This document shows positions 1,815 through 29,734 of a DNA stretch of 30,727 nucleotides, piece after piece. The DNA lies in UHGV virus genome UHGV-0157886; one strand, given 5' to 3'. The DNA comes from a virus. Position 1 is the first letter of the stretch, and each line of letters starts with the position of its first letter. The position numbers and the translations under genes were made by a program. The notes below the pieces were generated by a model. The model had not been told where the DNA came from, made no database searches, and saw only the letters and a program-made list of their open reading frames with translations.

Positions 1815-4289
1815 TTATTGCGGAGTGACATCCTGAGGTCGCCACCAGTATGTCTGATTAAACTCTTTCTTCGAACGTTGCTCCATTTTACGCAAATAGC
1901 CTGGTGAAAAATACTCCTGCATCTGGTTAAAGATCATATGATCGAGAGCCGCCTTTAAGTACCAGAGATTCGCACCTGGCATCAAACCTTTCCCCAGCTT
2001 CACCAGATCACCACCAGTCTGCTCACTCTTCCCTTCCACAGCATTTAACGGTATGCCCTGAGCAATCTTCACTACGTCATCAACCAGACCAGCTACCGGG
2101 CCAAGCATCGACGCCAGCGCGCCGCTTCCGTACCTAGTGTGATCTGACAATAAAAAGTCACCGTAAAGGCCAAGACCACCACCTTTCAGTAGAGCACCAA
2201 GCCAAAATTTAGCAGCATCTTCTCCTGTCATCTCGCGAGGATTACGACCAGACGCAAGGTCGTTAAGTTGCTGCGACAAAGCGCCAAGAATGGTCGTACT
2301 GGCAATAAACGTCGCAATATATGCCGCACGCCCACCAGCAGACGGCATACCCATAGCGCGTGACCAGTGACGCATAACCACCGAGATAGGGAACGATTTA
2401 AACAGGAAAACACTTCTCGTTAATTCACCTTTCCATGTTCCACGCTGAATACCAGAACCGGTTATCAGTTGCTCACGTGCTCCCGGTGTAATAACAGCCA
2501 TATCAACTTCTTCAGTTACGGCACCGAGCAGTTTACGCATTGCCTCAAATTTCACGCGTTCAGGCTCACCAAGATGTTTAACTGCTGAATCAGGGATACG
2601 CATAATGCTTTCCGGTGTCAGCATCGTATTATTGCCGTTCCCCCAGTCCTCCTGTTGCGCCAGCTTCCATACGCTCCAGTCTGTGTCAGTAATCCCTTTG
2701 CTTTTCAGGATACGAAAATCAGAATTATCGAGGCTACGAAGGTCTGGTGTCCGTGACACTACTTCTCCCAGGCTTCCAATCATGGTTACGCCATAGGCGC
2801 GCTTGTGCGCATCTGACCATGCTGTAAGCCCACTGGCACGCATTACCGCCGTTGCCGCCCAACGAGACACAGACGGCCCCATATTATCCATCGCCCAGCG
2901 GTTAACGCTGCCAAGTAGAGATTCCATCGCCAGACCAGCGCGGCGCGCCCGCGCAAGTTCTGTACGGTTCGTTGGGTCCATAGCTTCAAGCTGGTTGCGG
3001 AATAACTGGTTCATTGGAAGGTTGGTAACCTTCGCAGACAGATACATGGTTCCAAGATCAGAGAACGATGACAGCAACGCGGATCCGAGTCTGCTGGCAA
3101 CCAGCCAGTTGCGGATATTGTCAGACCATCGCGCGATGTGCGGATTCGCTACAGGCTGTGTCTTTCCGGAAATAAAGTTGTACAGATTCTCTGTGTTGTT
3201 CGCCAGCCGCTCGACTTTACCGGTTTTACTCGGGTTAGCTGTTGCCGTTTCTGCCTTCACCTGATCAAGAAGAGAGCGGAAAACATGATCGGGGTTTGGG
3301 CCATATGTTTCCACCAGTGCAATATCTTTACTGATACCTTCAAGGTGACCGACCATGATTTCCCATAGAGAGCGATCGCCATAAAGTTGCTGATATTGCA
3401 GATAGGAATCTGCATCTTTGAAATGTATCTGTCGTGATGCATTACCACGGTTAGCACGTGCGCCGGAAATTCGCATTCCGGTATCAGTAAGCTTATTCAG
3501 CCCACCAGTAGCGATCGTGTTATAAGCCTCTCCAAGAAATGCAGACAACTCGGCATCGTTCATCAGTTGTCCATCGGCTCGGGTATAATATTTGCGATCC
3601 AGCTTACCTATAACATCGCTAACCCATTTATCTTTTGATACCGCCCCAACCTTTTCCATAGAATGATGTTGAGGGATCCCCCAGTTTTCGAGATAGCCAA
3701 TGTCCCCACCAGCATCATTAAACCGGCGGCGCAGCAGCTCTGTAACTTCTCTCCACGCCTTAGCACCTTTTCTTGCTTTAGCATTGCCAGTATTTTGCCC
3801 TCGCATTTCATATACCAGATCACGCACGCCAGCTTCATCTTCAAACAGGCCAAAAAAGCGAGGATCAACTGCTTCAAATGCCTCCTGCAATTGACTCAAT
3901 GCATAATCACGAGTGGCTTTTGTTCTGGACTCAACAGAGAGGAAATTCGATTTACCGTCTGCATTAAAAGCAATAGTACGGTTAAGAGCGCCAAGTTTCC
4001 CATCAGCCCCTTGATAGCTATTGATAAATTTATCCAATCTCTGACGTGCGGCTATAGTGAGGGCCACACGACGTTTCTTTAATGCCGCTTCTCGCTGTAA
4101 TTCTTCAGATGCCAATTGTGCTGCTCGATATAGCCGCTCTGATTCGGAAAGTTGTCTCCACGACATCGGGTCATCACGAGCAATGGAGCGCATATTTCGA
4201 TAAATGCGGTCTTCAATGTTCTGTATTTCTCGCGCCGTTAACGTGCGCTGCGCCGCCTGCTGAACCGCTTGTATACATTCCTGTCTCAT
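1815..4289 (-). CDS. Internal virion / ejection protein (824 aa), T7 gp15/gp16-class by position
   Basis: Large ORF in a translationally coupled chain after the tail tubular genes. GAGAGG 9 nt upstream of the ATG at 4289. No family recognised from sequence alone. Confidence 0.55.
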   Translation of the reverse strand: MRQECIQAVQQAAQRTLTAREIQNIEDRIYRNMRSIARDDPMSWRQLSESERLYRAAQLASEELQREAALKKRRVALTIAARQRLDKFINSYQGADGKLGALNRTIAFNADGKSNFLSVESRTKATRDYALSQLQEAFEAVDPRFFGLFEDEAGVRDLVYEMRGQNTGNAKARKGAKAWREVTELLRRRFNDAGGDIGYLENWGIPQHHSMEKVGAVSKDKWVSDVIGKLDRKYYTRADGQLMNDAELSAFLGEAYNTIATGGLNKLTDTGMRISGARANRGNASRQIHFKDADSYLQYQQLYGDRSLWEIMVGHLEGISKDIALVETYGPNPDHVFRSLLDQVKAETATANPSKTGKVERLANNTENLYNFISGKTQPVANPHIARWSDNIRNWLVASRLGSALLSSFSDLGTMYLSAKVTNLPMNQLFRNQLEAMDPTNRTELARARRAGLAMESLLGSVNRWAMDNMGPSVSRWAATAVMRASGLTAWSDAHKRAYGVTMIGSLGEVVSRTPDLRSLDNSDFRILKSKGITDTDWSVWKLAQQEDWGNGNNTMLTPESIMRIPDSAVKHLGEPERVKFEAMRKLLGAVTEEVDMAVITPGAREQLITGSGIQRGTWKGELTRSVFLFKSFPISVVMRHWSRAMGMPSAGGRAAYIATFIASTTILGALSQQLNDLASGRNPREMTGEDAAKFWLGALLKGGGLGLYGDFLLSDHTRYGSGALASMLGPVAGLVDDVVKIAQGIPLNAVEGKSEQTGGDLVKLGKGLMPGANLWYLKAALDHMIFNQMQEYFSPGYLRKMEQRSKKEFNQTYWWRPQDVTPQ

Positions 4290-4294: not shown

Positions 4295-6097
4295 TTAACC
4301 TCTCAAGAAACACGCCACAGCGACATCAAACAGGCTGGAATCCTGTATTGCCTGCTCACTTTCCATGTTCGCTTCATCCAGTACTTCACGCGCACTGCGC
4401 GATTGTGGATTACCATCATCATCCAGCACGGTGATTATCATGTCAGGTGATTCAAGCAGCGAGTCTTCAGCTATGCGCAGATCAATATCTCCTGCCGGAT
4501 CTGCCATCATCTTTTGTTCTGCCTGTTGCAATATCTTACCGGGCTCAAAAGGAGCTACTTCGTCTGGCGTCCTGACCTCTGCTGTTTTATAGAATGAAAC
4601 AGCCTGAGCATTAAGTTCACTTTCTGCCTGCTGTCTCCGAGCCAGTTCTGCTCGAGCTTCAAAAAACTGACCGCCAGGCTCGTGCGGTGCCAACGCGTTA
4701 CGGGAAAATTCCAGGCGTTCTTGTGCCTGCCGGATTCGTTGGTCAATATCGCGAAGTCTGACCTGTTTATCTGATCGAGCACGAGACAAAGCTTTACCGC
4801 TGCCGGTTGGCTCTTCTGCAAGAATTTGTGCGCGCTGTTCAGTGAGATTTTCAATAATTCGTTGGCTATTAGCGATTTCAGACTGGTAAACCTGTCTATC
4901 GCCACGCGGCAAAAGCTGCGCGGCCTGTTCTTCAAGCAACCGATTTTCTATAGCGCGCGCCGTTACTCCATCATCTACAGATGACAGAGCCTCATTAACT
5001 GCCTGAGACAGCAGACTCTTACGCCCAGGAATTTCACTGAAAGATGCAGGCTCAACAATGCTGGCAACGTCTACAGGTCTCCCTTGGCTAACATCAGACA
5101 TAGCTTTTCGCAGAGCCTGAATGTGAGAATTGCGCGAAAGCACGTTGATCGGCACGCCGGGAGAAATATCAATTTCAGCATGATGAGCGGCATTCGCCGC
5201 CAGTGCAGCATCGACATCAACTGGTGAAAAATTGGGGGTGCTTGTAGCCTCACCGCGAGAGTTAATAAATCTGCCGACACCACCAAACGCCACCCCAAGA
5301 ACAGCATCAATAGCAATTGCCTGTCGATCCAACACATCATACTGGTTAGCCATTTCGCTATAGCCACCATCACGAAGCGTTTTTGCAGTAAGCCCACGCT
5401 GTGCCATACCGAACGCAATATTTGTACCTGCGGCATAGGCAATATCTGGCGTTGCACGTACTGCTGTTGCTGCGGCGCGTCGCACTGAACTTTCACCCGT
5501 CCGCGCAAGCTGAGACGCCACACCTTCCGCCAGCGCACCACCAGCACGTAACCCGAGGCTCATAGGGATCAGTGTTCCGGCACCAGCAGTAATACCCTGC
5601 ACTAATCCCGCTTCCTGCGCCGTCCTGAAATCAACACCCTGTGCTGTCAGCCGTTCAAACTCAGAAAAACCCTGTAGCGAAGTTACCGCCGCAGCACCTC
5701 CGACCGGACCACCGAGCGTTGTACCGATAACAGCCTGCCCGCCCATATCGAACAACCCATAAAGAACCTGCCCGGCGGTTCCGGTTGTCGCGGCATCAGG
5801 CGTCAGCCGCTTAACCTGCTGCTCTGCTAGTTTTCTCTGCTCGGCAATGTATGAAACTGAAGTGTCATTGAGCGAGGTGTTTTCGTTAACAAACTGAGCA
5901 ATCGGGGATACGATTTTATCCATCCCTGCCCAGAGCAACTGATCTGGCTTTGCCACCAGCCCGGAGTACAAACCAGACAATGCCGCTCCTACAGCATTGT
6001 CGAAAAAGCCAACATCGCTGTTAAAGCCAACTGGATTTGATGCTGCTTCGTCAAGCTGCTGATTCTGGTTTACTGGATTAAGGCCAAAGTAACTCAT
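4295..6097 (-). CDS. Internal virion / ejection protein (600 aa) with Gly/Ala-rich hydrophobic N-terminal half and coiled-coil C-terminal half
   Basis: Start ATG overlaps the upstream stop (ATGA at 6094-6097). Gly/Ala-rich segments typical of membrane-inserting ejection proteins. Confidence 0.55.
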   Translation of the reverse strand: MSYFGLNPVNQNQQLDEAASNPVGFNSDVGFFDNAVGAALSGLYSGLVAKPDQLLWAGMDKIVSPIAQFVNENTSLNDTSVSYIAEQRKLAEQQVKRLTPDAATTGTAGQVLYGLFDMGGQAVIGTTLGGPVGGAAAVTSLQGFSEFERLTAQGVDFRTAQEAGLVQGITAGAGTLIPMSLGLRAGGALAEGVASQLARTGESSVRRAAATAVRATPDIAYAAGTNIAFGMAQRGLTAKTLRDGGYSEMANQYDVLDRQAIAIDAVLGVAFGGVGRFINSRGEATSTPNFSPVDVDAALAANAAHHAEIDISPGVPINVLSRNSHIQALRKAMSDVSQGRPVDVASIVEPASFSEIPGRKSLLSQAVNEALSSVDDGVTARAIENRLLEEQAAQLLPRGDRQVYQSEIANSQRIIENLTEQRAQILAEEPTGSGKALSRARSDKQVRLRDIDQRIRQAQERLEFSRNALAPHEPGGQFFEARAELARRQQAESELNAQAVSFYKTAEVRTPDEVAPFEPGKILQQAEQKMMADPAGDIDLRIAEDSLLESPDMIITVLDDDGNPQSRSAREVLDEANMESEQAIQDSSLFDVAVACFLRG

Positions 6098-8607
6098 TGC
6101 GGAATATCTCCGGAGAATCTCTGACGCTTCTGTGTCAGATCAAGAACAACGGGAGAACCATCATCTTTTAGCAGATAACCAGTACCAAGTTTCACCAGGT
6201 ACTGACTATCGCCGTAACTTTGCAAACCATACTGACCAGGCGGTGTTTTTATCCCTGTGCCAACAACTTGTTCATTCCAAGCCTGATTAACCTGCTTATC
6301 GAATTGCTCTGCAGACATTCCCCACGGCAAAAGAACATTCCCCATTCCGTTATAGTCATGCACGCCACCTGTAGCTACGTTAACAGCCTGTTTCCAGATA
6401 TCATTGTCAATTTCGCCTGATACCACGCCTTTTTTCGCCATCACACCAGCGTAATAGTCCTTTGCGATCTCGTATGCCATTGATGCCCCCTGAGCATCAC
6501 CAGCAAATGCATCCTTCACCATGTCAGAAAACTCAAGGCGAAGATCAGCATCTTTAGGCATCGGAATACCTTTCGCATCATCAGTACCTTTACGAGCCGC
6601 CGCGCCAGCAAGAATTGTCTGCGCAGCGGTTTCAGGAGACACGGAAACATCCGGATTAAACCAGTTTTTTTCTGCCAAAATACCACCTGGCTTATCCATC
6701 AGTATCCCGGCAACGGCAGCAGATGGAGCGTTGGCACTGATCTGCTGTAGTGCTGACATATACACCTGCCCACCACCAGTGCTCTGCCTGATGGTATCGA
6801 GATATGCTGCCTGTTGGGAAACGGGCGCATCACGAAAGAAAACACCGATCTGATTGGCCTCGTCTTTGGAAAAGAACGTCAGTGGAGTGCCATATGACTT
6901 AGCAAGGTCACTGACCTGAGCAGCACGCAAGGCAACGCTCTGTCCAAAGTTATCCTTATTGCTCATGTCGATAGGCTTTGTCTGTCCGGCGGCAAGAGAG
7001 AACTGTACAGGATCAGCCTGTCGCTGCTTTATCACCTGACTTGCAGCCGACACAACGTTGTCATAAAGAGCGGCTCGTGCCGCATAACCCTCCCCTGTCT
7101 CACCAGTATCCGGGCGTAATTGCTCAACATATGCTGTAATGCTGCTTGTCGGCATGTTGCGGAAAGAGCCTATATACTGTCCGGCGATTTGCGTATTTCT
7201 GAACTCGGTATATCGCAGGTTTCCTTCTCTTACTCCATAAGCTGCAATAAAATCAGCCTCACCAGGTGGGTTAGGAAATTCAACGCCACGCATATACGCA
7301 GCTGTCGCATCGCGAACCTGGCTGTCAATCATCGTTTTATATTCAGCCTGCTGCTGCCGACGCAGTTGATCCGCCTGTCGCATAAAACTTGCCTGCGCCT
7401 CAGGAGATGCCGCATCGAATGCTGCATTACCGGTATAGCGTTTGGTGTTGGTTGGAATTGTTGATAAACCAAGTGCTGCACTGACACCAGCAGTTAACTG
7501 CTGATCACTGTATGGCTGGCTACCGTTCTCATGATGGATAATGGCTGCACAAAGCGCCTTCAGGGTATCAGGATTAGATGCATCGAGAGGCTCATCAGCA
7601 GAAACGCCAAGTTGTTCGCACACTGCTTTGATATACGACATAGTGTCATTTTTATCAGCAGGCGGTGCCCAGCGATTAATTATCTCGCTGACGGTATCAA
7701 TACCCTGCCTCTGATACGACATCAGGTTCCGCCCTAATGCACGAATCCCGTGTTCAGGTGTTTCGAATTTAGCAAATCGACCATCATCACCGGTCTGGCC
7801 TACCCACGGATTAGTTTTGCTGTATTCGAGATTTCCTGGGTTATTGTTGCGTATGCCACGGGCACGCTCGGAAGAGTCACTATCTGCTACAGCACGGCGA
7901 GCTCCAGCAGCAGTATCACTTAACTCGCCATTACTTTGGATGAATGCGGTCTCATTGTTTGCCGACCACTGGGACAATGCAGCATCAGCAACCTTCTCTT
8001 TAAACTCGATTTTCTTGGCCTGGATTTGCTCGTTGCTCCAGCCATGTGCAACACCGTACTCCTCAATTTGCTGGAAAGTTTGTTTGTTAGCCAATACGTA
8101 TGCGGCGTTGTCGCCATACAATGCTGCGGCATTTTTACCATTGTTCAGCAGTGTCGCCTGAAACTGGCCTTCTTCGTAGGCATTAATTTGCCCTATCTCG
8201 TGTCGCCCGGCCTGCGTAGTGAACTGAATGCGCTGCTGCTGCGCCTGCTGCATGAAAGCATTACGAGCCTGTTCATCCGGCAGCGACATAGCCAGTTGTT
8301 CGACCTGAGCATCAAACTGCTGCGTATACTCATGGCCTTTTCCAATAGCATTTTTCCCTTTCAGGTTAAGCAATCCTGTTTCAGGATTATTCAGCAGATC
8401 GCTGCTTATCTGACTGAGGTTAAGAGATGCCTCCTGAGCCAGAGCGATATTGGCACGCTGTTTTGCCTGCCCCAAAACATCAATTGCCTCTGTCCCTGCC
8501 CGAACAAAAGCATCACCAATACCTTGCTGAGAAAACGTCTGCAAGCCTGCTGACTGAACTCCACGACTCTCAACCTGACGTCCGGATACTGTTGGTACGA
8601 CTGGCAT
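6094..8607 (-). CDS. Large internal virion protein (about 837 aa) with a possible cell-wall-hydrolase-like domain
   Basis: The ORF-track start at 8682 is probably too far upstream: the ATG at 8607 overlaps the stop of the preceding gene (TAATG) and has GGAGG 6 nt upstream. Internal segment RARGIRNNNPGNLEYSKTNPWVGQ...FAKFETPEHGIRALGRNLMSYQ looks like a conserved enzymatic or binding domain; the muralytic assignment is unverified. Confidence 0.55.
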   Translation of the reverse strand: MPVVPTVSGRQVESRGVQSAGLQTFSQQGIGDAFVRAGTEAIDVLGQAKQRANIALAQEASLNLSQISSDLLNNPETGLLNLKGKNAIGKGHEYTQQFDAQVEQLAMSLPDEQARNAFMQQAQQQRIQFTTQAGRHEIGQINAYEEGQFQATLLNNGKNAAALYGDNAAYVLANKQTFQQIEEYGVAHGWSNEQIQAKKIEFKEKVADAALSQWSANNETAFIQSNGELSDTAAGARRAVADSDSSERARGIRNNNPGNLEYSKTNPWVGQTGDDGRFAKFETPEHGIRALGRNLMSYQRQGIDTVSEIINRWAPPADKNDTMSYIKAVCEQLGVSADEPLDASNPDTLKALCAAIIHHENGSQPYSDQQLTAGVSAALGLSTIPTNTKRYTGNAAFDAASPEAQASFMRQADQLRRQQQAEYKTMIDSQVRDATAAYMRGVEFPNPPGEADFIAAYGVREGNLRYTEFRNTQIAGQYIGSFRNMPTSSITAYVEQLRPDTGETGEGYAARAALYDNVVSAASQVIKQRQADPVQFSLAAGQTKPIDMSNKDNFGQSVALRAAQVSDLAKSYGTPLTFFSKDEANQIGVFFRDAPVSQQAAYLDTIRQSTGGGQVYMSALQQISANAPSAAVAGILMDKPGGILAEKNWFNPDVSVSPETAAQTILAGAAARKGTDDAKGIPMPKDADLRLEFSDMVKDAFAGDAQGASMAYEIAKDYYAGVMAKKGVVSGEIDNDIWKQAVNVATGGVHDYNGMGNVLLPWGMSAEQFDKQVNQAWNEQVVGTGIKTPPGQYGLQSYGDSQYLVKLGTGYLLKDDGSPVVLDLTQKRQRFSGDIPQ

Positions 8608-9152
8608 TATAATCCTCCGGGTAATCTGGTTCCTGCTGCTGCCCCGATTGGCGCAGGAGTGCTTTGAGTAAACGGACTCCACGTCCCACCAAACATCTGG
8701 TACGCACCGTATGCCTTCAGAGGCGCAGTGAGCAATGTTGTTGCTGCTCCCACATTCCCCTGTTTACGGGCTGAACTGGCTTCTGCTTTATAGTTGGCAG
8801 CCTGAACCTGATAACCGTAAGCCTCGCGTTGCGCGTTATTCACCGTCGTCAGCGAATCAAGAGCGCCAAACTGGGCAGTGTCGCCAAATATATCCAGCGC
8901 GTTACCTGTAGATAAATCAGCGCCGGTAGCCCCCATTGTCGCCGCCTGTGTACCAAGCCGCTGTCGGGTCTCTCTGCGTCGTTGCTCAGCTTCAGCGTTA
9001 CCTCTGTTTATTGCATCATTTGCCTGAGCTGTGGCTATATCTGCGTTCGCTTCTGCAACCTTCGAGGCATACTTTCCCTGTTGGTACTGGGTGTATGCCT
9101 GAATGCCACTCATGGCGAGCATTGCGCCACCAGCAATAACCGGATCGCACAT
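8607..9152 (-). CDS. Internal virion protein (181 aa, Ala/Gln-rich), T7 gp14 position
   Basis: Start overlaps the upstream stop (TAATG at 9150-9154). Size and position match podovirus internal core protein B. Confidence 0.45.
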   Translation of the reverse strand: MCDPVIAGGAMLAMSGIQAYTQYQQGKYASKVAEANADIATAQANDAINRGNAEAEQRRRETRQRLGTQAATMGATGADLSTGNALDIFGDTAQFGALDSLTTVNNAQREAYGYQVQAANYKAEASSARKQGNVGAATTLLTAPLKAYGAYQMFGGTWSPFTQSTPAPIGAAAGTRLPGGL

Positions 9153-9616
9153 TATTTTCTCTCCATGTGAAATCTGTGGAAATTAAGACCAAGAGCACCA
9201 TAAGGCGCGGCTTCTTCAAGCCTGAATCCAAGCCAGTGCAGCCATGCTTTGGCAACATGGTTTCGCTCGTCGACGTAGTTTTCCAGGCGCGGATAAACTG
9301 CCAGCATCTGCTGCAATACAGGGCGGCAGTGGCGCAGAAATGTCTTCTGATATTTTTCAATACGGCTGGTTCCTACCAGCCAGGGCGTACCATTGCCACC
9401 GATCATTGACGCCGGAGATACACCAAACATGGTTACCAGTTCTCCGTTCGCGAACCCTGACCAGGCCATAGTCGCAGTGCGAAGACCAACGCGCAGCGCA
9501 TCTTCGGTAGTCATCAGCGATACCGCATACAGTTCGTCAATATCAGCCTGACGAACATCCGGCAAAATCATCTGAAGATGCTCTTCGGTAGCGGGAATAA
9601 TTTGAACATCGATCAT
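9152..9616 (-). CDS. Virion-associated protein (154 aa), T7 gp13 position
   Basis: Translationally coupled between the tail tubular B-like gene and the gp14-like gene. No recognisable motif. Confidence 0.4.
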   Translation of the reverse strand: MIDVQIIPATEEHLQMILPDVRQADIDELYAVSLMTTEDALRVGLRTATMAWSGFANGELVTMFGVSPASMIGGNGTPWLVGTSRIEKYQKTFLRHCRPVLQQMLAVYPRLENYVDERNHVAKAWLHWLGFRLEEAAPYGALGLNFHRFHMERK

Positions 9617-20691: not shown

Positions 20692-20721
20692 GGTAATAGT
20701 TACCGTTGTGGTAATAGTACC
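20692..20721. promoter_or_regulatory. Cluster of TTACC/GGTAA half-sites, including a perfect TTACC-N5-GGTAA at 20700-20714, immediately upstream of the small terminase start
   Basis: GGTAAtagTTACCgttgtGGTAAtagTACC: four alternating half-sites. Confidence 0.5.
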
Positions 20722-20723
20722 AT

Positions 20724-20751
20724 GCAAAATAAAGCCGCCATAGTTGGCGGC
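20724..20751 (-). terminator. Intrinsic terminator in the leader of the packaging operon
   Basis: Hairpin GCCGCC-loop-GGCGGC (20734-20751) followed on the minus transcript by UUUAUUUUG. Confidence 0.55.
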
Positions 20752-20792
20752 AGTATCCAAAACCCGTCAAATTCATCATGCATAATCTACTC

Positions 20793-20804
20793 GTGACATG
20801 TCAC
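20793..20804. repeat. Perfect 12-bp palindrome GTGACATGTCAC, copy C
   Basis: Identical to copies A and B. Overlaps the stop codon of the 115-aa ORF upstream of the packaging operon. Confidence 0.8.
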
Positions 20805-21148
20805 ACTATTAATTTCGTTTCATGCCAGCCTTTAGTCACCCAGCATTGCGAGTCACCATTACACGGGCATGAATTAACGGGAACTCTCTCGCCGCACTTA
20901 CCGCAAAGTTTTCTGCTGATCGATTTTATACGCCCGCGCACACGTGCATCATCCTGGCGGATCAGCAGCGCGATGTACTCGGCCATTTCATAGGGATCGC
21001 GACCAGGGCGCCGGGCGGCGCAGTTCCGCGCCAGCATTTCCTGCTCCTGCTTATCCAGCACCAGTTCAATTTTGCGCTCACCGGCGGCGGACTGCCGAGC
21101 GCGCTGCGCGGCTTTGCGTTCTGCGGGGGATTTAGCCACGAATCGCAC
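20801..21148 (-). CDS. Hypothetical protein (112-115 aa) with basic N-terminus and C-terminal Cys cluster (CGKCG...CPCNGDSQC; possible zinc ribbon)
   Basis: GTG start. A second GTG at 21139 has GGAG 8 nt upstream and is the more likely start. High-GC region with competing frames, so the call is tentative. Confidence 0.35.
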   Translation of the reverse strand: MRFVAKSPAERKAAQRARQSAAGERKIELVLDKQEQEMLARNCAARRPGRDPYEMAEYIALLIRQDDARVRGRIKSISRKLCGKCGERVPVNSCPCNGDSQCWVTKGWHETKLIV

Positions 21149-21254
21149 TCCACGCCAGATTGATTAATGACTCCCAGGCAATATAAACCCGGATACCAGC
21201 AGCCAGGCCGAAACCAATCACCATGGCATAAAGCAGAGCGTTGCACTTGTTCAT
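21132..21254 (-). CDS. Small hydrophobic peptide (40 aa, single TM); not in the ORF track
   Basis: ATG at 21254-21252 overlaps the DUF551 stop (TAATG) and has AGGAGGTG 6 nt upstream. Product MNKCNALLYAMVIGFGLAAGIRVYIAWESLINLAWSAIRG. Confidence 0.45.
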   Translation of the reverse strand: MNKCNALLYAMVIGFGLAAGIRVYIAWESLINLAWSAIRG

Positions 21255-22099
21255 TACTTCACCTCCTGCGGTGGTTCCGGTAGCGGCATCCAGTGGGTTA
21301 CGTCATCTAGGATATTTCCTGATAAATACGTGAAAGCTCTGTATTTTTTGTAATCAATTGGATTTACAACCCAGTTCCAATATGCGGCCACGATTTCACC
21401 TTGACTAAATGCCAGTAACATTTTGGTGTCTTCCGGCATTCGCTCACTACAGCTTATCCAACCATCCGGAGTTACCGGAGAGTTGCCAGCGGCCTCGGGC
21501 ATATCCGGACCTTTGCGAATAGCCTTTGCAAGCTCAACAGGGTCATCGTAAAGCCAGTCGCCAGTTTGTGGGTGATTTGCTTCTGCAAGCTGCGCAGCCC
21601 ATTCAAGACCATCTTTTTGACCTTGGAGATAATCAAGCGGCAACTCTTCATGATTACTTGCAGGTTCGGCACTATGAAGCATGGCGGCGCGGCAGGCGTT
21701 CCAGCCTCTCACCTCTGCAATAGCGGCAACAGCATCAACCGCGTACATGCTAAGAGGATTAGGCATTGGTTTTTCTTCCGGTACTACTGGCACTGGAGGG
21801 GTGGCGTAGAGTGGAACTCCTCCCCCTCCACCAGAAAATTCATTGCGAGCGTTATACTCACGACCATCTGCGTCATCACGCATCCACGCCACCGGTTCTG
21901 CTCCCAGTGATGCCAGTGCAATTCGTGCCAGCTCACGCACAACTTCAGGGGGCGCGTGACGGTCATTCAGGTCATCCCACAGACGTAGCATGTTATCGCT
22001 ATCAGGGTTAACATCCTCATTAGTTCCGGCCAGCGCACTAATAACCTCATCGGCTGCTTCAATAATTTTCTGTGCCTGTTCTCTGGTAATAGTGGTCAT
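21254..22099 (-). CDS. DUF551-domain phage protein (281 aa)
   Basis: C-terminal segment DGWISCSERMPEDTK...YWNWVVNPIDYKKYRAFTYL...THWMPLPEPP matches the DUF551 signature as I remember it. Start overlaps the upstream stop (ATGA). Confidence 0.6.
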   Translation of the reverse strand: MTTITREQAQKIIEAADEVISALAGTNEDVNPDSDNMLRLWDDLNDRHAPPEVVRELARIALASLGAEPVAWMRDDADGREYNARNEFSGGGGGVPLYATPPVPVVPEEKPMPNPLSMYAVDAVAAIAEVRGWNACRAAMLHSAEPASNHEELPLDYLQGQKDGLEWAAQLAEANHPQTGDWLYDDPVELAKAIRKGPDMPEAAGNSPVTPDGWISCSERMPEDTKMLLAFSQGEIVAAYWNWVVNPIDYKKYRAFTYLSGNILDDVTHWMPLPEPPQEVK

Positions 22100-22305
22100 T
22101 TGTTAATCCTCAAAACTTTATGCCCGGGCGCAAAAGCACGTGTTTTGTCTTTACTTATTCGCCACCCGTCTTTACGGGCCTCTTTTGCACAACCAGACCA
22201 TGACGTACCGATATACTCACCGAAGTCTGGCACTGGATATACACCTTCCGTACACTGGCGGCAGTCACAATAGAGATGCATGGTGTAACTTGCGGCAATA
22301 GCCAT
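22096..22305 (-). CDS. Small Cys-rich hypothetical protein (69 aa)
   Basis: ATG at 22305 with AAGGAG upstream (the track start at 22338 is less likely). Confidence 0.4.
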   Translation of the reverse strand: MAIAASYTMHLYCDCRQCTEGVYPVPDFGEYIGTSWSGCAKEARKDGWRISKDKTRAFAPGHKVLRINK

Positions 22306-22306
22306 A

Positions 22307-22792
22307 TCATTCTCCTTTGATGCGAATGCCTGTTGCAATGCTGTTTATGATGCTGTCAGTGCATGGGGTAGAAAGCTGGGCATCTCCAGCAATTTTCATG
22401 ACCTCAACATCTGCATATCGAATACCGAGGTGTATCAGACCGGCTATGCCTGACTTAAGCCGAGCATTTTCCATAAATAGAACTTTTGCCCGCTGTTTTT
22501 CTGCTTCAAGCTCAACGCGCAGCTTCCCTACCGTTAGCGCAATATCCTCGTTCTCCTGATCGCGGCTTTTGATGTATTGCAGGTTTCTTTCCCGTTCATC
22601 CAGCAGTGCCAGCACGGTTTCTGGTCCGGTCAGAAATTTGAAGGCGTTGAGCGCATCAATATCCACACCGTAATCTTTAAGTTCCTGTTCACTTAACAAG
22701 TCATCATCAGCTGGCAACATTAACAGGCGTTCCATTGCTGGAATTGCACGTTCCGCCACCTCACGCAGTGCCTGATAATCAATCTTGCTCAC
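22307..22792 (-). CDS. Ea22-like (ead) early protein (about 162 aa)
   Basis: GTG at 22792 with GGAGG 6 nt upstream, overlapping the upstream stop (GTGA). Contains IDYQALREVAERA and LLDERERNLQYIKSRDQENEDIALTVGKLR, which I recall as Ea22-family motifs. Confidence 0.5.
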   Translation of the reverse strand: MSKIDYQALREVAERAIPAMERLLMLPADDDLLSEQELKDYGVDIDALNAFKFLTGPETVLALLDERERNLQYIKSRDQENEDIALTVGKLRVELEAEKQRAKVLFMENARLKSGIAGLIHLGIRYADVEVMKIAGDAQLSTPCTDSIINSIATGIRIKGE

Positions 22793-23352
22793 TGGTTGCC
22801 TCCTTTGCGAATCTGTTCCGCCCATTCTTCAAGGGATTTCTCCGCATATTCACCGGACAGGCCATCAATCGGATGCGGTTCATTAGCCAACTCTTCTTTC
22901 GCTGACAAAATCATGCGTGTAACGTCGAAAACTTCACGCAAAGACTTATTGATAAATCCGTGATTGAACGCAGCAGCAAGACGGCTTGCGGTGTAGTTAA
23001 TCCCCTCGTTGCGTGCCTCCGCACGTACTTCAGCCAGAAAAGCATCGGTGGCTGGCATATTTCCTGTTGCCTTCATGGCCTCCAAAATAACCAGAACGCC
23101 ATCTCTCCCAATCTCCTCGCAGATGACCTCGGTGCTGTCGCCAACAACATCGCAAAATGCCTGAACTGCTTTACGAGCCAGCTCATTCTCCGCCGCCAGC
23201 GCATTAGCACGCACCAGTTGCACTTCCAGTTGCGTTGCCAAATCGCTGATCAGCTTTGCTACACTGCGCATATCAACGGCACCACATTCAGCTTTCAGTT
23301 CCGAAGCCATCTCATGCCCGGCGGCAACTAACCCTTTGATATTACCGTCCAT
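22789..23352 (-). CDS. Hypothetical early protein (187 aa), helical
   Basis: GAGGG upstream of the ATG at 23352. No family recognised. Confidence 0.45.
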   Translation of the reverse strand: MDGNIKGLVAAGHEMASELKAECGAVDMRSVAKLISDLATQLEVQLVRANALAAENELARKAVQAFCDVVGDSTEVICEEIGRDGVLVILEAMKATGNMPATDAFLAEVRAEARNEGINYTASRLAAAFNHGFINKSLREVFDVTRMILSAKEELANEPHPIDGLSGEYAEKSLEEWAEQIRKGGNQ

Positions 23353-23413
23353 CTTTACCCTCGCTTATCCACATAACTTATTGATTACATTGATAACTAA
23401 AAAGATCGTCGAT

Positions 23414-23758
23414 TCAGAACTCTTCGATGTTCCAGCCACCACCTGCTTTCTTTGGTTTAACCGTTACCCCGATGATTCGGAACGGATACTGATCTGCGGC
23501 GACTTTGGTTTTCACCCTGGCGTCGTCGGTCCAGAAACCTTTCACTTCGTGCAGTTCCATCTCGCCGGTGGCGAGCATCACAGCAAAATCGGGCGTATAG
23601 AACGTGTTGTCAGCTAACCGAAGCTTGATACCCTCAAATCGATACCAGACGATTTCTCCTGCACGTTTACGCAGCTCAAGGTGCTGGCAATACGCAGATT
23701 CTGTTTTGTTCATCTGGCCTGTTTTGAGTCGACCAAGAGCCTGTATCTGTTTTCTCAT
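23414..23758 (-). CDS. DUF1064-family phage protein (114 aa)
   Basis: Size and motifs (YCQHLE...GEI..Y.FEGIKL...YTPDF...EVKG) fit DUF1064 as I remember it. Located just after the replication genes. Confidence 0.5.
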   Translation of the reverse strand: MRKQIQALGRLKTGQMNKTESAYCQHLELRKRAGEIVWYRFEGIKLRLADNTFYTPDFAVMLATGEMELHEVKGFWTDDARVKTKVAADQYPFRIIGVTVKPKKAGGGWNIEEF

Positions 23759-23761
23759 GAT

Positions 23762-23838
23762 TTACCTCTGAGGTAATTAAAAACCACATAAGACACGAAA
23801 TCAATAGATTTTAGAATATTTTATTACCTAACAGGTAA
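23762..23838. promoter_or_regulatory. Two perfect TTACC-N5-GGTAA sites (23762-23776 and 23824-23838) flanking an AACCACATA box (23782-23790) and a minus-strand TTGATT-N17-TTTAAT promoter-like element
   Basis: The proximal site overlaps the Shine-Dalgarno sequence (GAGG) of the DUF1064 gene. Confidence 0.5.
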
Positions 23839-23875
23839 TTGTCGAGGCGTAAAAAAATGCGCTATCGCGCTGGTA

Positions 23876-24676
23876 TTACTTGATAAATCCTGCCGCCTTT
23901 CCCCGCCTGTATTCCTCCATCAGCCACTGCGCCGGTGTTATTCCCCCAAGGGTGGCGGCGTTAGGCATGCACCCGAAACTTCGCCCTGGTGGATGGTAAA
24001 CGTCTCTCCCTGTGTCCGGAGGCGTACTCATGGGCTCTGGCTTTGCCTGTATGCTGATCACCGGATCGGGTATCTGCTGTCCGGAAGCCACCTTTTTCGC
24101 CCAATCATCGAGCAGCCTGCGTGCGTGTTTCTCAACCTCAATCTCGCTAAGCTGGCGCTGATACATTGCACGGCGGGTATCACATACGACCCAGTACATA
24201 ACCGGATGTCGCCACGGGAATCTTTCGGGACCACCAGGATATAAACTTTTTTCCTTGCTGTACCGGTGAAACTCCGCCATCACATCGTCAATGGTGACGC
24301 CAAGAACCATCTTGCTGTCTTTGCACCACTTGATAAATTGCCCTGGAGACGGCCAGAACGGAGATTCACTGGCGCGGGCGTGGCGCATACCAGCAGAAAC
24401 CTGTTCACGGGTTCGGATCCCCCCTTCGGCAAACGCAGCAATCCACTGCTGTTTTGCAGCAACTTCCTGCTCTGGCGTCTTCAGGTTGGTTACCACTGCC
24501 GCCGGAAACAGTTGTTTCAGCTGTTTAAAAAGGGCATCAACAAGCCTCTCTGCTGACATGTTCACCACATTGTCATTGTTGACGTACTGATGCTCATAAC
24601 CTGACATGCGAGAAAGGGCTTCTCCGTCACGGTTTTGTATCGCGGTAAAAACGTTGTTCACAAGAAATCCTCCCAT
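23876..24676 (-). CDS. Replication protein P-like helicase loader (lambda P family)
   Basis: LFPAAVVTNLKTPEQEVAAKQQWIAAFAEGGIRTREQVSAGMRHARASESPFWPSPGQFIKWCKD aligns by eye with lambda P (LATFPASLANRDQNEVNEIRRQWVLAFRENGITTMEQVNAGMRVARRQNRPFLPSPGQFVAWCRE). Exact start uncertain; overlaps the 3' end of the O-like gene. Confidence 0.75.
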   Translation of the reverse strand: MGGFLVNNVFTAIQNRDGEALSRMSGYEHQYVNNDNVVNMSAERLVDALFKQLKQLFPAAVVTNLKTPEQEVAAKQQWIAAFAEGGIRTREQVSAGMRHARASESPFWPSPGQFIKWCKDSKMVLGVTIDDVMAEFHRYSKEKSLYPGGPERFPWRHPVMYWVVCDTRRAMYQRQLSEIEVEKHARRLLDDWAKKVASGQQIPDPVISIQAKPEPMSTPPDTGRDVYHPPGRSFGCMPNAATLGGITPAQWLMEEYRRGKAAGFIK

Positions 24677-25455
24677 GCTTCAGGGCTGTTCCAGTGCGGA
24701 ACGTTGTTATCAGGTAATGTTGATTGCTTCTGTCTGCTAATCTGCAGCCGCCTTGCCAGCTTCTGCTCCCACTGTGCCTGATGGTATGCCTTACCCTCAG
24801 CCATCCAGTAAATTCTGAACTCTGCAAGTTCCTGTGCCGTTGGCAGACTGTCCAGGTAGATCCCCTGCAATGAGCTTTTCCGAAGAAAGTCATCTGATGG
24901 CTGCCATTGTTCATGCATGACAAATTTGCCTAATTGCCCTGGCCCACCAGGAGGAACAAAGTTATTCATCACGGCGTTGTTTGCTCCGGGGTCATGAGGC
25001 ACAGAATCCCCGCTTTTTGTCCTGCTCTCCCTCTCTTGGTTAAATGACTGGTTATATGACTGGTTCTGGATCCCGTTTTTGGGATCATTCAACATCCCGT
25101 TTTTGGGATCATTCAACATCCCGTTTTTGGGTATATTCCCGTTTTCGGGTTCATTGCCCCCCTCCCGGTTGCCTTTAATGTTCCCGTTTTTGGTTATATT
25201 AAGAGAGAAAACCCGCACTCTTTTTGTCGCTCCCTTTCTCTCTCCGGTATCTGAAATAAGCCCCATTTTCATGAGCGATATAAGCCCGGCCTGCACGGTT
25301 TTTTTATTCAGGCAAGTGTCTTTAACGAGGCGTTCTATGCTGGGGTAGCAGAGGTTATATTCATCGGCTCTGTCAGCCATCGAGAGCAGTATGAGCTTTA
25401 ATGATGAGCTACCTGGATCTGTCTCCCAGGCCCAATCTGTTGCATGTCTGCTCAT
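24658..25455 (-). CDS. Replication initiator, lambda O-like (N-terminal winged-helix domain), with origin iterons inside the gene
   Basis: N-terminal LKLILLSMADRADEYNLCYPSIERLVKDTCLNKKTVQAGLISLMKMGLI matches the phage replication-initiator HTH pattern. The repeated peptide NGNIPKNGMLNDPKNGMLNDPKNG is encoded by tandem DNA repeats, as in lambda O/ori. Confidence 0.7.
   Translation of the reverse strand: MSRHATDWAWETDPGSSSLKLILLSMADRADEYNLCYPSIERLVKDTCLNKKTVQAGLISLMKMGLISDTGERKGATKRVRVFSLNITKNGNIKGNREGGNEPENGNIPKNGMLNDPKNGMLNDPKNGIQNQSYNQSFNQERESRTKSGDSVPHDPGANNAVMNNFVPPGGPGQLGKFVMHEQWQPSDDFLRKSSLQGIYLDSLPTAQELAEFRIYWMAEGKAYHQAQWEQKLARRLQISRQKQSTLPDNNVPHWNSPEAWEDFL
25071..25200. repeat. Tandem direct repeats (iterons; about 24-bp unit TCCCGTTTTTGGGATCATTCAACA, 2 perfect and about 3 degenerate copies); probable replication origin
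   Basis: Copies at 25071-25094 and 25095-25118 are identical; degenerate copies follow through about 25200. A/T-rich stretch adjacent. Confidence 0.65.
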
Positions 25456-25470
25456 GATTAATCTCCGCTA

Positions 25471-25671
25471 TCAGTTTGAGTGTTGTGGGGAGGAATTAAT
25501 CATGATCTGCTTAATCTCTGCCCTGATGCGACGGTTTGATTCCATGGTGCACTCAACACAGTGTCCGTTGTAAACCCAGCGTTCACTGTCATGTCCGTGC
25601 TTACATGGTTTTCCGGTGTAGTAGCGTTTAAGTCCGCGCTTTGCGGCATCAATACGTGTAATGATTTCCAT
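25471..25671 (-). CDS. Small Zn-ribbon-like protein (66 aa; CxH...CxxC) in the position lambda gives to cII
   Basis: ATG at 25671 (MEIITRIDAAKR...). The longer track ORF starting at 25734 has an implausible hydrophobic extension. Not CII-like by sequence. Confidence 0.4.
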   Translation of the reverse strand: MEIITRIDAAKRGLKRYYTGKPCKHGHDSERWVYNGHCVECTMESNRRIRAEIKQIMINSSPQHSN

Positions 25672-25751
25672 GGTAAGCCCTGTTATTAGTATTGGGATTA
25701 CGGTTATTTTGTGCTGACACAAAAAAAAGATCAACCATATTTGGTTTTTTA

Positions 25752-25766
25752 TTACCTTTGAGGTAC
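25752..25766. promoter_or_regulatory. Operator-like site TTACC-N5-GGTAC (one mismatch), site 4
   Basis: TTACCtttgaGGTAC, between the post-cro terminator and the replication operon. Confidence 0.4.
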
Positions 25767-25770
25767 GAAT

Positions 25771-25800
25771 AGATATGAAAAGACCGCCGGATGGCGGTCT
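25771..25800 (-). terminator. Intrinsic terminator just downstream of cro (tR1-like position)
   Basis: 8-bp stem AGACCGCC / GGCGGTCT with GGAT loop; minus transcript continues UUUCAUAUCU. Confidence 0.6.
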
Positions 25801-25821
25801 ACAGAGGGTTGTGGCTGGATA

Positions 25822-26052
25822 TCATGAGTAGAAGAAGTATGCCAGTTCTGCTTTTGAGCGCAGCCATTGTCTTGATTTACAGGCTTTAAAAAGCCCATCC
25901 ATCAATACCTTACCTGGCATTTTGCGCTTACCTGTTAAGTGAGTCTGGATATAGTGACTCGTCGTTCCGGCTTCCTGTGCGAAGGCTTCACGCTCATCCG
26001 GAGTAAGTGCAAGCCAGTGCTTTTTGAAATCGAAATGTCCGTTATCGCTCAT
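25822..26052 (-). CDS. Cro-like small regulator (76 aa), divergent from the repressor gene
   Basis: Small basic protein with a putative HTH (FAQEAGTTSHYIQTHLTGKR). Transcribed divergently from the CI-like gene across an operator cluster. Family not recognised with certainty. Confidence 0.45.
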   Translation of the reverse strand: MSDNGHFDFKKHWLALTPDEREAFAQEAGTTSHYIQTHLTGKRKMPGKVLMDGLFKACKSRQWLRSKAELAYFFYS

Positions 26053-26088
26053 AGCTATTGCCTGATATTTATTTCAGATAATAAATAT

Positions 26089-26151
26089 TCACCTATAAGG
26101 TAACAAAAATCAAGGATAGTTACCCATGAGGTGCATTTACCTGTTGGGTAA
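26089..26151. promoter_or_regulatory. Immunity operator cluster: three 15-bp inverted repeats (26089-26103 TCACC-N5-GGTAA; 26120-26134 TTACC-N5-GGTGC; 26137-26151 TTACC-N5-GGTAA) between cro and cI
   Basis: OR1-3-like arrangement in the 154-bp divergent intergenic region. Half-site TTACC/GGTAA is shared with the sites elsewhere in the genome. Confidence 0.6.
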
Positions 26152-26206
26152 TATTGCTTTAAATTGAATCATCTTCTGATTCAGATATGAGGCGATTTTC
26201 CAGAAA

Positions 26207-26791
26207 ATGAAAAGTATCCAGGACGTCCGCAGGCAAAATCTCAACGACTTGATCGACCGTGAATTCAATGGTGTTCAGACGCGGATGGCAGAAAAACTTG
26301 GAACTCAGGCAAATCTGGTAAACCGCTGGGCTCTTGGCAAGAAGGTTATCGGCGACCAGGTTGCACGAAAAATTGAAGCTGCCGCCAATAAACCACGTAA
26401 CTGGCTTGATATCGATCGCTCGCTTTCTCAGGAGGGTTTTCAGCCTGTCGGACCAAGCGACATTGGTCAGCTGGCGGCTCACAACCTGGAACGCTGGATG
26501 AGCGAAAGCCGCGACCTTTCAACACAGGGAAAACTTCACCGCGCATCCGGCGTAGCCCAGGTGACAATCAGCCGCCTGTTAAACAATGAGGTCAGCGTTT
26601 CCATTTCCACCCTGGAGAATGTTGCATCCGCATTCGGGCGTCACGGATATGAATTACTGATTCACCCGCACGACCCTGCGACTATCAACTATGACCGCTC
26701 GCGCTACGCATTGTTACCCGAAACCGAGAAAGCAAAGATCGAAAGTTACATTGAATTTGTCATCAACCAGAACGAAAAAAATAAACAATAA
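26207..26791 (+). CDS. CI-like repressor (194 aa) with two HTH-like segments and no S24 peptidase / autocleavage domain
   Basis: HTH_XRE-like segment QTRMAEKLGTQANLVNRWALGKKVIGDQVARKI and a second HTH-like segment ASGVAQVTISRLLNNEVSVSISTLENVASAFG. No Ala-Gly/Ser-Lys protease motifs. No Shine-Dalgarno sequence (possibly leaderless, like lambda cI from PRM). Confidence 0.55.
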   Translation: MKSIQDVRRQNLNDLIDREFNGVQTRMAEKLGTQANLVNRWALGKKVIGDQVARKIEAAANKPRNWLDIDRSLSQEGFQPVGPSDIGQLAAHNLERWMSESRDLSTQGKLHRASGVAQVTISRLLNNEVSVSISTLENVASAFGRHGYELLIHPHDPATINYDRSRYALLPETEKAKIESYIEFVINQNEKNKQ

Positions 26792-26812
26792 AACTATAGT
26801 TTTCAGCAAGTA

Positions 26813-26836
26813 AGCCGCCTCATGGCGGCTTTTTTA
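26813..26836 (+). terminator. Intrinsic terminator after the repressor gene
   Basis: Hairpin AGCCGCC-TCAT-GGCGGCT followed by TTTTTT. Confidence 0.7.
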
Positions 26837-26848
26837 TTGCCATCAAGA

Positions 26849-26925
26849 TTACCTTATGGGTAATTTTTTTAACTCATATCTATTGACATCAAACCAAATA
26901 CGCATAATCATTACCCCAACGGTAA
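26849..26925. promoter_or_regulatory. PL-like early-left promoter region: TTGACA -35 (26883-26888) flanked by two perfect TTACC-N5-GGTAA sites (26849-26863 and 26911-26925)
   Basis: Operator / -35 / AT-rich -10 region (CATAATCA) / operator arrangement directly upstream of the first early-left ORF. The -10 spacing is ambiguous. Confidence 0.5.
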
Positions 26926-26944
26926 CAGACCGAGGTAACAAATT

Positions 26945-27097
26945 ATGCAGTGGAAAATCATCAACGGTTGGTACTGCGTTACTGCATGCGGATTCATGAG
27001 CTGGAAGTTCCGCACCTTACAGGAAGGCATTAAGTGGGCTTTCGTCAGCAAAGAAGCTCGCGATGTGGCCAACGATAACGAGATATGGGAGGGCTGA
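26945..27097 (+). CDS. Small hypothetical protein (50 aa), first gene of the early-left operon; not in the ORF track
   Basis: ATG at 26945 with GAGG 7 nt upstream. Product MQWKIINGWYCVTACGFMSWKFRTLQEGIKWAFVSKEARDVANDNEIWEG. Stop is 2 nt before the next start. Confidence 0.4.
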   Translation: MQWKIINGWYCVTACGFMSWKFRTLQEGIKWAFVSKEARDVANDNEIWEG

Positions 27098-27099
27098 TA

Positions 27100-27399
27100 A
27101 TGAACGTTAATCAGCAGAAAAATCTTCAAAAAATCATGCTGGCATTCGACAAGGACTACCGCCTGTCAGAACAGCTATATGACCGACAAGTTGAACTGAT
27201 TGAGAGTATCCGGCTTCATCAACTGGCCTCAACTTTCGATGTTGTAACAGGCAAAGGCGTTCGCCAGGAAGTACTGGAGGCCGCTAAAGACAGCCCTGAG
27301 TTCGAAGAACTAATGGATGCCTACCGGCGCGAGGCAATGGCAATTATCGCCCGCTGGGATCTGGCTGATCAGATTGATGGGCAGAGGGACGCGGCATGA
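27100..27399 (+). CDS. Hypothetical early protein (99 aa)
   Basis: ATG at 27100 (MNVNQQ...) with GGGAGGG upstream; the track start at 27085 is in-frame but lacks an SD. Stop overlaps the exonuclease start (ATGA). Confidence 0.45.
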   Translation: MNVNQQKNLQKIMLAFDKDYRLSEQLYDRQVELIESIRLHQLASTFDVVTGKGVRQEVLEAAKDSPEFEELMDAYRREAMAIIARWDLADQIDGQRDAA

Positions 27400-28295: not shown

Positions 28296-28304
28296 GGAGA
28301 AAAA

Positions 28305-29327: not shown

Positions 29328-29376
29328 CCACCACCGCGGCGCCACGCGCGCCGCACTGCAACCAAGAGAGGTATTT

Positions 29377-29625
29377 ATGAAAGGTGCATTAGGTAAGAAG
29401 GAACTCCTGGCGGTGGTGCCACTGTCATGGAGCACTATCGACCGTATGGAGCGCGCAGGTGAATTTCCTAAACGCTGGTATATCACTGACAAACGCTGCG
29501 CATGGAACCGTGACGAAGTTGAGCGTTGGCTTGATGAACGTCAGGCAGCAAGCCCGGCAGAGTTCCAGGGTAAAAAACCTCCTGTTCAGCAACGTGTATA
29601 TCGTCCTGTGAGCAACGCGGCATGA
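29377..29625 (+). CDS. AlpA-family (MerR-like HTH, excisionase-like) phage regulatory protein
   Basis: LSWSTIDRMERAGEFPKRWYITDKRCAWNRDEVERWLDE matches the AlpA / Phage_AlpA pattern from memory. Size 82 aa. Confidence 0.55.
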   Translation: MKGALGKKELLAVVPLSWSTIDRMERAGEFPKRWYITDKRCAWNRDEVERWLDERQAASPAEFQGKKPPVQQRVYRPVSNAA

Positions 29626-29734
29626 GTGTGCTGCTAAGGCACTGGAGCAAATGGTCAGGATGGTACTTATTCCTGGCCTCTGTTTCAGCATGGCTTTATC
29701 TGCTGGCATTAATTTTCAGAGAGGGTTGGATTAA

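Follow-up and report, generated by a model that had tools for sequence, protein, structure and literature searches.

An Enc34-type, putatively wall-cutting domain in a candidate ejection protein of a phiV10-like podophage

A muralytic domain carried on an ejection protein is an ordinary, already-annotated arrangement for short-tailed phages, and such domains on gp15-like or gp16-like ejection proteins have been reviewed (PMC8954989). The Enc34-type domain considered here belongs to a family that is itself already known, from lysis proteins, from protein P5 of phage PM2 and its relatives, by similarity from a type VI secretion system (T6SS) effector and from proteins annotated as podophage ejection proteins. 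We describe such a domain in the product of a gene at positions 6094–8607 of the viral sequence UHGV-0157886, a stretch of 30,727 nucleotides that we refer to, at its full length, as the window. Sequence comparison relates the window, as a mosaic, to the epsilon15-like Escherichia phage phiV10 (genus Uetakevirus), with whose genome it is mostly collinear. Along its entire length, the gene interval is 99.7% identical to phiV10 in nucleotides, and its protein (hereafter the window protein) is the orthologue of phiV10 gp18 (PhiV10p18, gene 18) and of epsilon15 gp15.

The work on phage Enc34, whose endolysin gave the first solved structure of this domain type (crystal structure 7Q47), defines the domain as the PHA02564 family (PMC8943055). 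The isolated catalytic domain of Enc34 ORF39 lyses outer-membrane-permeabilised Escherichia coli, Pseudomonas aeruginosa and Hafnia alvei; its fold is all-helical, resembles the alpha-lobe of lysozyme and is distant kin of GH73 and GH23, with the catalytic Glu of Enc34-type enzymes carried by a helix permuted with respect to GH23/GH73. In the same paper, Glu131 is proposed to be catalytic, with Trp79 and Tyr95 positioning the substrate. M4Lys of phage BSPM4 degrades purified peptidoglycan once its transmembrane domain is removed (PMC7143992). Further afield, structural protein P5 of PM2 and its Vinavirales homologues combine the Enc34-type fold and triad in a structural-protein lysin of a tailless membrane-containing phage (PMC9502842), and the T6SS effector Tae5 has an N-terminal domain that is Enc34-type by similarity (PMC13340143).

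An Enc34-type domain and its predicted active site

The domain and its signature residues, in the amino acid (aa) numbering of an 837-aa protein, are:

7408–7872, minus strand: Enc34-type (PHA02564) lysozyme-like catalytic domain, aa 246–400 (PDB sequence matches 9vvp_L and 7q47_A; Foldseek match 7q47_B)
7831–7851, minus strand: RNNNPGN signature, aa 253–259 (codon positions; near-invariant in representatives)
7669–7671, minus strand: W313, equivalent of Enc34 Trp79, substrate positioning (alignment to 7q47; role from PMC8943055)
7633–7635, minus strand: Y325, equivalent of Enc34 Tyr95 (alignment to 7q47; conservation)
7528–7530, minus strand: E360, equivalent of the proposed catalytic Enc34 Glu131 (HENG motif; alignment to 7q47; kept in epsilon15 gp15)

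Sequence matches and a predicted structure place the domain in the Enc34-type family as firmly as computation can. A phmmer search of PDB sequences paired aa 249–398 with two chains, the N-terminal domain of Gp29 (9vvp_L, E = 5.7e-38) and, from Hafnia phage Enc34, the endolysin catalytic domain (7q47_A, E = 3e-17), and a profile built from 56 homologues returned the same two chains at E = 1.2e-45 and E = 3.9e-32, respectively, the latter match spanning residues 4–163 of the 170-residue chain. When an AlphaFold2 model of the full-length protein was searched against the PDB with Foldseek, the sole strong fold matches were the two 7Q47 chains (7q47_B, E = 3.6e-7, target-normalised template modelling (TM) score 0.76; 7q47_A, E = 4.6e-7, 0.73; both at 34–36% identity), and the predicted local distance difference test (pLDDT) exceeds 90 in the domain region. 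The family reached in this way is enzymatic, and its two characterised members, Enc34 ORF39 and M4Lys, degrade peptidoglycan in vitro. The first-pass annotation of this DNA, made from its letters, had proposed a compact enzymatic, possibly muralytic domain in a podovirus ejection protein, a proposal that profile, modelled-structure and comparative evidence all support. It had also pointed to a conserved RNNNPGN...WxGQ motif region, which the two phmmer E-values and near-invariance in about 70 representatives place far beyond chance.

A Pfam search of residues 250–400, suggested at that first pass as a check, led nowhere: scans of Pfam-A and NCBIfam gave no match for the whole protein (Pfam E ≤ 1) or for the isolated domain (Pfam E ≤ 10). 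The domain could not be named at first reading because Pfam and NCBIfam are without a model for it. The SLT profile (PF01464) found no match either, in the whole protein at E ≤ 1 or in the isolated domain at E ≤ 10, and on this comparison the domain is not of the SLT family. The likeness to the T7 gp16 transglycosylase that had been drawn earlier holds as a proposed function and fails as a family assignment. As to the bond cut, the literature leans towards beta-N-acetylglucosaminidase activity for this family, which would apply here by analogy; the enzyme may instead be a lytic transglycosylase or a muramidase.

The Enc34 residues W79, Y95 and E131 align to W313, Y325 and E360 when a one-residue offset of the deposited chain is taken into account. 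An exhaustive search with the whole protein against a protein library clustered at 50% identity yielded 12,675 representatives at E ≤ 1e-3 (some share of which match the catalytic domain alone), 6,624 at E ≤ 1e-10 and 322 at E ≤ 1e-30; the catalytic domain is present in 73 of the 150 best. Counted over domain-carrying representatives, mutually at most 50% identical, E360 is kept in 70 of 71 and Y325 in 64 of 68, and position 313 is Trp in 59 of 73 and aromatic in 70 of 73. N256-P257-G258 is invariant (70/70), with R253 in 67, N254 in 68 and N259 in 69 of the same number. Such conservation of E360, Y325, W313 and the RNNNPGN loop indicates selection on the active site. Across the catalytic domain, epsilon15 gp15 and the window protein share 84% identity, and gp15 keeps all three of W, Y and E; a tblastn search with the Gp29 domain found it in 747 phage records, epsilon15 gp15 included.

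Database labels point in several directions. In RefSeq, PhiV10p18 appears as 'head protein' with a remark on its similarity to PM2 structural protein P5, phrog_992 is likewise 'head protein', and PHROG families 1044 and 873, also matched by the window protein, are labelled 'endolysin'. Epsilon15 gp15 stands in GenBank as a 'putative lytic transglycosylase', from an HHpred match to SltB, so the idea of a virion-associated muralytic protein is already in the databases.

The gene and its start signals are:

6094–8607, minus strand: whole gene, 837 aa plus stop (open reading frame and translation; phiV10 orthology; phrog_992 E = 0)
8614–8618, minus strand: Shine-Dalgarno sequence GGAGG, 6 nucleotides upstream of ATG 8607 (read from sequence)

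The open reading frame that had been reported at this place, with its strand left unstated, is real and lies on the minus strand; the plus-strand translation of 6094–8607 is riddled with stops. Two starts are possible, GTG at 8682 (862 aa) or ATG at 8607 (837 aa). We rejected the GTG because the ATG has both GGAGG and a stop/start overlap, sharing 1 nucleotide with the TAA stop of the upstream gene (TAATG), and this overlap suggests translational coupling to that gp14-like gene. ATG 8607 is also the start in the phiV10 annotation of PhiV10p18. The first-pass annotation was right that a domain is present; its limits of about residues 270–380 fit the numbering of the 862-aa frame. We place the domain at aa ~246–400 of the 837-aa protein, where the stretch GIRNNNPGNLEYSKTNPWVGQTGDDGRFAKFETPEHGIRALGRNLMSYQRQGIDTVSEIINRWAP is found verbatim at aa 251–315 (window 7663–7857, minus strand).

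A slot between two conserved modules

The catalytic domain sits between two larger parts of the protein:

7879–8607, minus strand: N-terminal (N) module, aa 1–243, disordered at aa 7–43 and then formed of long helices at aa 40–226 (AlphaFold2; representatives matching aa 1–243 only)
6094–7407, minus strand: C-terminal (C) module, aa 401–837 plus stop, a conserved scaffold of helices that ends in a small beta C-terminus (representatives whose match is confined to about aa 400–826; alignment; AlphaFold2)

The rest of the protein had been described as low-complexity, a description that does not survive: sequence entropy outside the domain is ordinary, the full-length model has a mean pLDDT of 89.9 and a predicted TM score (pTM) of 0.69, and disorder in the model is limited to aa 7–43 and the last few residues. 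The C-terminal 440 aa or so form a widely conserved module that is shared with proteins bearing other muralytic domains; modelled alone, it reaches a pLDDT of 94.7 and a pTM of 0.87, and a Foldseek search of this module against the PDB gave no significant match (best E = 0.66). By hydropathy, the 837-aa protein has no transmembrane, signal or hydrophobic segment.

It is the C module that reveals the slot. We scanned against Pfam the 54 representatives whose best match to the query lies in this module, and found SLT in 27, GH108 in 16 and a divergent Enc34-type domain in five more. Domain positions come from P0129 plus ten proteins that were each scanned by themselves, of which one gave no match: five SLT and four GH108 domains fall between about aa 233 and 452 and end 38–92 residues before the C module, the same position that the Enc34-type domain takes in the window protein. 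In two longer SLT carriers (P0169 and P0208), the gap to the C module exceeds 200 residues. Three unrelated wall-cutting folds in one slot are strong comparative evidence that the job of the slot is to cut peptidoglycan, and as judged by these sequence matches the slot is a swappable wall-cutting module.

A structural search broadens the picture. Foldseek against BFVD, a collection of predicted viral structures, returned 83 proteins at E ≤ 1e-3, mostly of 540–980 aa, and the informative names among the 50 matches listed are GH108, SLT, LT_GEWL, phage tail lysozyme, NlpC/P60, Peptidase M23 and 'putative lysin', a result that rests on protein names and not on domain positions. Judged by names only, the slot perhaps also accepts peptidases (NlpC/P60 and M23).

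Several further observations concern how the gene is put together. Identity to epsilon15 gp15 is 76% in the N module and 41% in the C module, against the 84% of the catalytic domain, so the gene appears internally mosaic. Close orthologues in E. coli prophages are mostly 935 aa rather than 837 aa long and carry a 98-aa insert that includes GNINLFNRPSVKNEDGTISTVRTISIG; it is located at the N-terminal edge of the catalytic domain (aa 243–346 of P0010; junction at about window 7861–7881), and this placement exactly at the domain edge marks a modular junction. The insert gave no significant Pfam match and no PDB sequence match. Other representatives (the P0270/P0177 architectures) include a 1337-aa protein with two copies of the domain (aa 87–204 and 701–815) and an 869-aa protein with the domain at its extreme C-terminus (aa 732–860).

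By gene position, the window protein is the equivalent of T7 gp15. An hhalign comparison of the family profile with T7 gp15 found no similarity (probability 0.2, E = 0.36), and in the Foldseek search of the full-length model T7 gp15 appeared as weak matches (6yt5_A, E = 3e-3, probability 0.93; 7k5c_A, E = 7e-3, probability 0.87) with TM scores of only 0.15–0.18. We do not claim homology to gp15, given the hhalign result and the C module alone being without a significant PDB match. Tentatively, and with rather more doubt than confidence, we suggest that the N and C modules together might make up a carrier scaffold that is very widespread among podophages, whose single hot-spot slot takes at least three unrelated glycosidase families and which could be a functional counterpart of the T7 gp15 periplasmic tunnel. 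If true, Uetakeviruses and many uncultured podophages would carry wall-cutting activity on the tunnel subunit itself.

Where and when the domain would act

The genes on either side of the window protein bear on this question:

9152–9616, minus strand: 154-aa gene, internal virion protein at the gp13 position (phrog_308, E = 9e-63; weak Pfam match to Phage_T7_Gp13, E = 0.088)
8607–9152, minus strand: upstream 181-aa gene, T7 gp14-like internal virion protein (Pfam T7_gp14, PF24072, E = 2.5e-7, above the curated cut-off; phrog_418 'internal virion protein')
4295–6097, minus strand: downstream 600-aa gene, orthologue of epsilon15 gp16 (phrog_1145; annotation; one hydrophobic segment by hydropathy, aa 260–278)
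1815–4289, minus strand: downstream 824-aa gene, orthologue of epsilon15 gp17, virion structural/core protein (phrog_684 'virion structural protein'; annotation; PMC5850374)

Further upstream lie two 'tail protein' genes, followed by epsilon15-type capsid genes and a T7-type portal, and the gene order matches that of T7: tail, gp13, gp14, large internal proteins. The 600-aa protein is probably another ejected protein. Compared with the PDB by phmmer, the three neighbours of 181, 600 and 824 aa gave nothing meaningful. The epsilon15 orthologue of the gene at 9152–9616 is annotated in GenBank as a GNAT acetyltransferase by HHpred; an enzyme fold at the gp13 position would be unusual.

A gene directly after gp13-like and gp14-like genes fits an ejection protein that opens peptidoglycan during DNA injection. 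We therefore favour, with a probability of about three in four, the reading that the window protein is a particle-borne ejection protein of a phiV10/epsilon15-like podophage whose central glycosidase opens the sacculus as DNA is injected; its packaging, ejection, catalytic activity, bond specificity and conditional requirement are what we infer. The protein would be packaged in the particle with the gp14-like, 600-aa and 824-aa proteins and, once the tailspike has bound O-antigen, these proteins would be expelled through the portal-tail channel. In the periplasm, the groove of the central domain (W313 and Y325) would bind glycan strands and E360, as general acid, would cleave them. The local hole in the sacculus could then be enlarged until a trans-envelope DNA conduit, to which the scaffold modules may contribute, reaches the inner membrane; a trans-envelope density has been reported during epsilon15 infection, as cited in PMC4755594. 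By analogy with the transglycosylase domain of T7 gp16, the phage could probably do without the activity where walls are loosely cross-linked and would need it more where cross-linking is high, as in cold or stationary cells.

Four points weigh against this reading. The same domain serves as a lysis endolysin in Enc34, M4Lys and D3112-like phages, so the timing of its action cannot be read from the domain alone. For the Glu/Tyr/Trp triad, the catalytic role was deduced by superposing structures and not by mutagenesis (PMC8943055). Accounts of the bond that the family cuts do not agree, the M4Lys data being read as glucosaminidase plus endopeptidase where one figure legend says muramidase (PMC7143992). 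Finally, accounts of epsilon15 gp15 disagree: a review credits gp17 alone with the internal core (PMC5850374), and a summary of epsilon15 genetics lists gp15 with gp4, gp20 and gp17/16 as a packaging/injection device and does not place it (PMC12391199), with the consequence that an internal-core location of the window protein is not established. A literature search on Uetakevirus virion proteomics found nothing useful.

Of the other readings, the one that survives best, unlikely as we hold it to be, keeps the particle-borne entry hydrolase and moves it to an external tail hub or tube, where the enzyme would be displayed at the tail tip and not ejected from the head; both of these epsilon15 accounts can be taken in its favour. 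Guichard et al. in 2013 reportedly proposed gp15 and gp17 as the central tail tube. However, candidates for the hub already exist in the 202-aa and 823-aa upstream 'tail protein' genes (phrog_376; HHpred pairs epsilon15 gp11 with T7 tail tubular protein A), genes for gp13-like and gp14-like internal proteins come before the present one, just as they do in T7, and near-identical Gp29 domains occur in Kayfunavirus proteins named as internal or ejectosome components.

A second reading, which we consider quite improbable, holds that the central domain is catalytically dead and purely peptidoglycan-binding or structural, anchoring or positioning the ejection complex in the wall without cutting. Catalysis by the window protein is deduced from its relatives, the family triad comes from superposition only, and Enc34 yielded no substrate complex, all of which this reading could use. 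Against it stand E360, kept in all but one of the relatives counted, together with Y325, W313 and the RNNNPGN loop, and the catalytically typical SLT and GH108 domains that homologues have in the slot.

That the window protein is instead a lysis enzyme or second endolysin acting late in infection, as in Enc34, BSPM4 and D3112-like phages, strikes us as highly improbable, although the domain family is a proven endolysin elsewhere and two of the matched PHROGs carry that label. At another place in its genome, phiV10 has a full lysis cassette of its own (PhiV10p27-30), annotated as holin, COG3179-type endolysin and Rz/Rz1, and the present gene lies within a virion-protein operon and not beside holin or spanin genes. 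Its product is 837 aa long with no transmembrane or signal segment, and a large conserved scaffold module flanks the domain on either side. Collinearity with phiV10 would put the cassette just past the left edge of the window. Apart from the aa 246–400 domain, no other muralytic domain was seen in the window; the earlier statement that this domain, if muralytic, would be the sole peptidoglycan-degrading activity visible there is true, but an effect of where the window was cut, a phiV10-type cassette lying just outside. We likewise rejected a hidden endolysin within the window, given the collinear cassette past its left edge and a window that starts inside the tailspike gene.

A last reading, likewise highly improbable, makes the protein a plain 'head protein' or scaffold with no cell-envelope role, as the RefSeq and phrog_992 labels have it, but that label is generic and leaves the conserved glycosidase active site and the SLT/GH108 swaps unexplained.

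The remaining window and comparison with known systems

Elsewhere, the window shows further signs of exchange relative to phiV10. Positions 1 to ~840 (minus strand) start within the tailspike gene, whose N-terminus MTVSTEVDHNEYTGNG reads leftwards off the edge. Megablast against phiV10 left bases 1–662 and 1292–1811 unmatched, which suggests that the receptor-binding part differs and that a Bro-N/small-gene region has been replaced. A YqaJ-type exonuclease (299 aa, 27396–28295, plus strand) and RecT (340 aa, 28305–29327, plus strand) are separate open reading frames; the phiV10 record has a single RecE/RecT fusion (PhiV10p37), and 27400–29323 is largely without a phiV10 megablast match. At 20801–23352 (minus strand), after the small terminase gene, stand lambdoid accessory genes (DUF551, Ead/Ea22-like), with patches shared with many Shiga toxin (Stx)-converting phages. 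About one-third of 20700–30727 is uncovered by any single phage record, and the early region is accordingly mosaic.

Our analysis adds a corrected family assignment (Enc34-type instead of SLT), a set of residues for mutagenesis and the picture of a slot with exchangeable occupants. The precise family replaces both the uninformative 'head protein' of RefSeq and the SLT-type label of the epsilon15 orthologue, and W313, Y325 and E360 are named as three testable catalytic residues. A gap in Pfam-A and NCBIfam is shown for a domain found in 747 phage records. Our current understanding of podophage DNA injection is unchanged; the protein provides one more case of mosaic swapping of wall-cutting domains among ejection proteins. 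We envision that the conserved scaffold could also serve enzyme mining, as a handle for gathering diverse Gram-negative muralytic domains.

Among known systems, Enc34 ORF39 (7Q47) and M4Lys have a homologous domain that shares the RNNNPGN N-terminal loop as well as the Trp/Tyr/Glu signature. They are lysis proteins of about 26 kDa with a C-terminal transmembrane domain, encoded in lysis cassettes, whereas in the window protein the domain is internal to an 837-aa putative virion protein that has no transmembrane segment and is encoded among ejection-protein genes. The model of the window protein also places a short beta-hairpin (aa 271–281) in the loop, where Enc34 is described as all-helical. 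PM2 P5 and Tae5 differ from the window protein in both delivery vehicle and domain architecture.

The closest solved relative of the domain is Gp29 (PDB 9VVP, 1295 aa), for which our literature search found no publication. There, the domain lies at the extreme N-terminus (aa 3–146) and the rest of Gp29 has no match to the window protein, whereas here it is inserted at aa 246–400 of a protein encoded after a gp14-like gene. Kayfunavirus proteins with a 95–99% identical Gp29 domain are annotated 'internal virion protein D', 'internal virion protein with endolysin domain' or 'DNA ejectosome component', placing an Enc34-type domain at the N-terminus of a large coliphage podovirus protein annotated as an ejection protein.

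In proposed function, the nearest parallels are the T7-like ejection proteins. Gp35 of K1E/K1-5, which is gp15-like and has lysozyme activity, is a precedent for muralytic function on the protein after gp14 instead of the gp16-like one (PMC8954989); its enzyme is a lysozyme, not of the Enc34 type, and the two are likened by description, not sequence. The N-terminal SLT/GH23 domain of T7 gp16 has the same proposed job, that of a muralytic domain on an ejected internal protein opening peptidoglycan for the DNA conduit (PMC8954989). Homologues of the window protein carry a genuine SLT domain in the slot, whereas the window protein itself presents another enzyme family on another carrier than T7 gp16.

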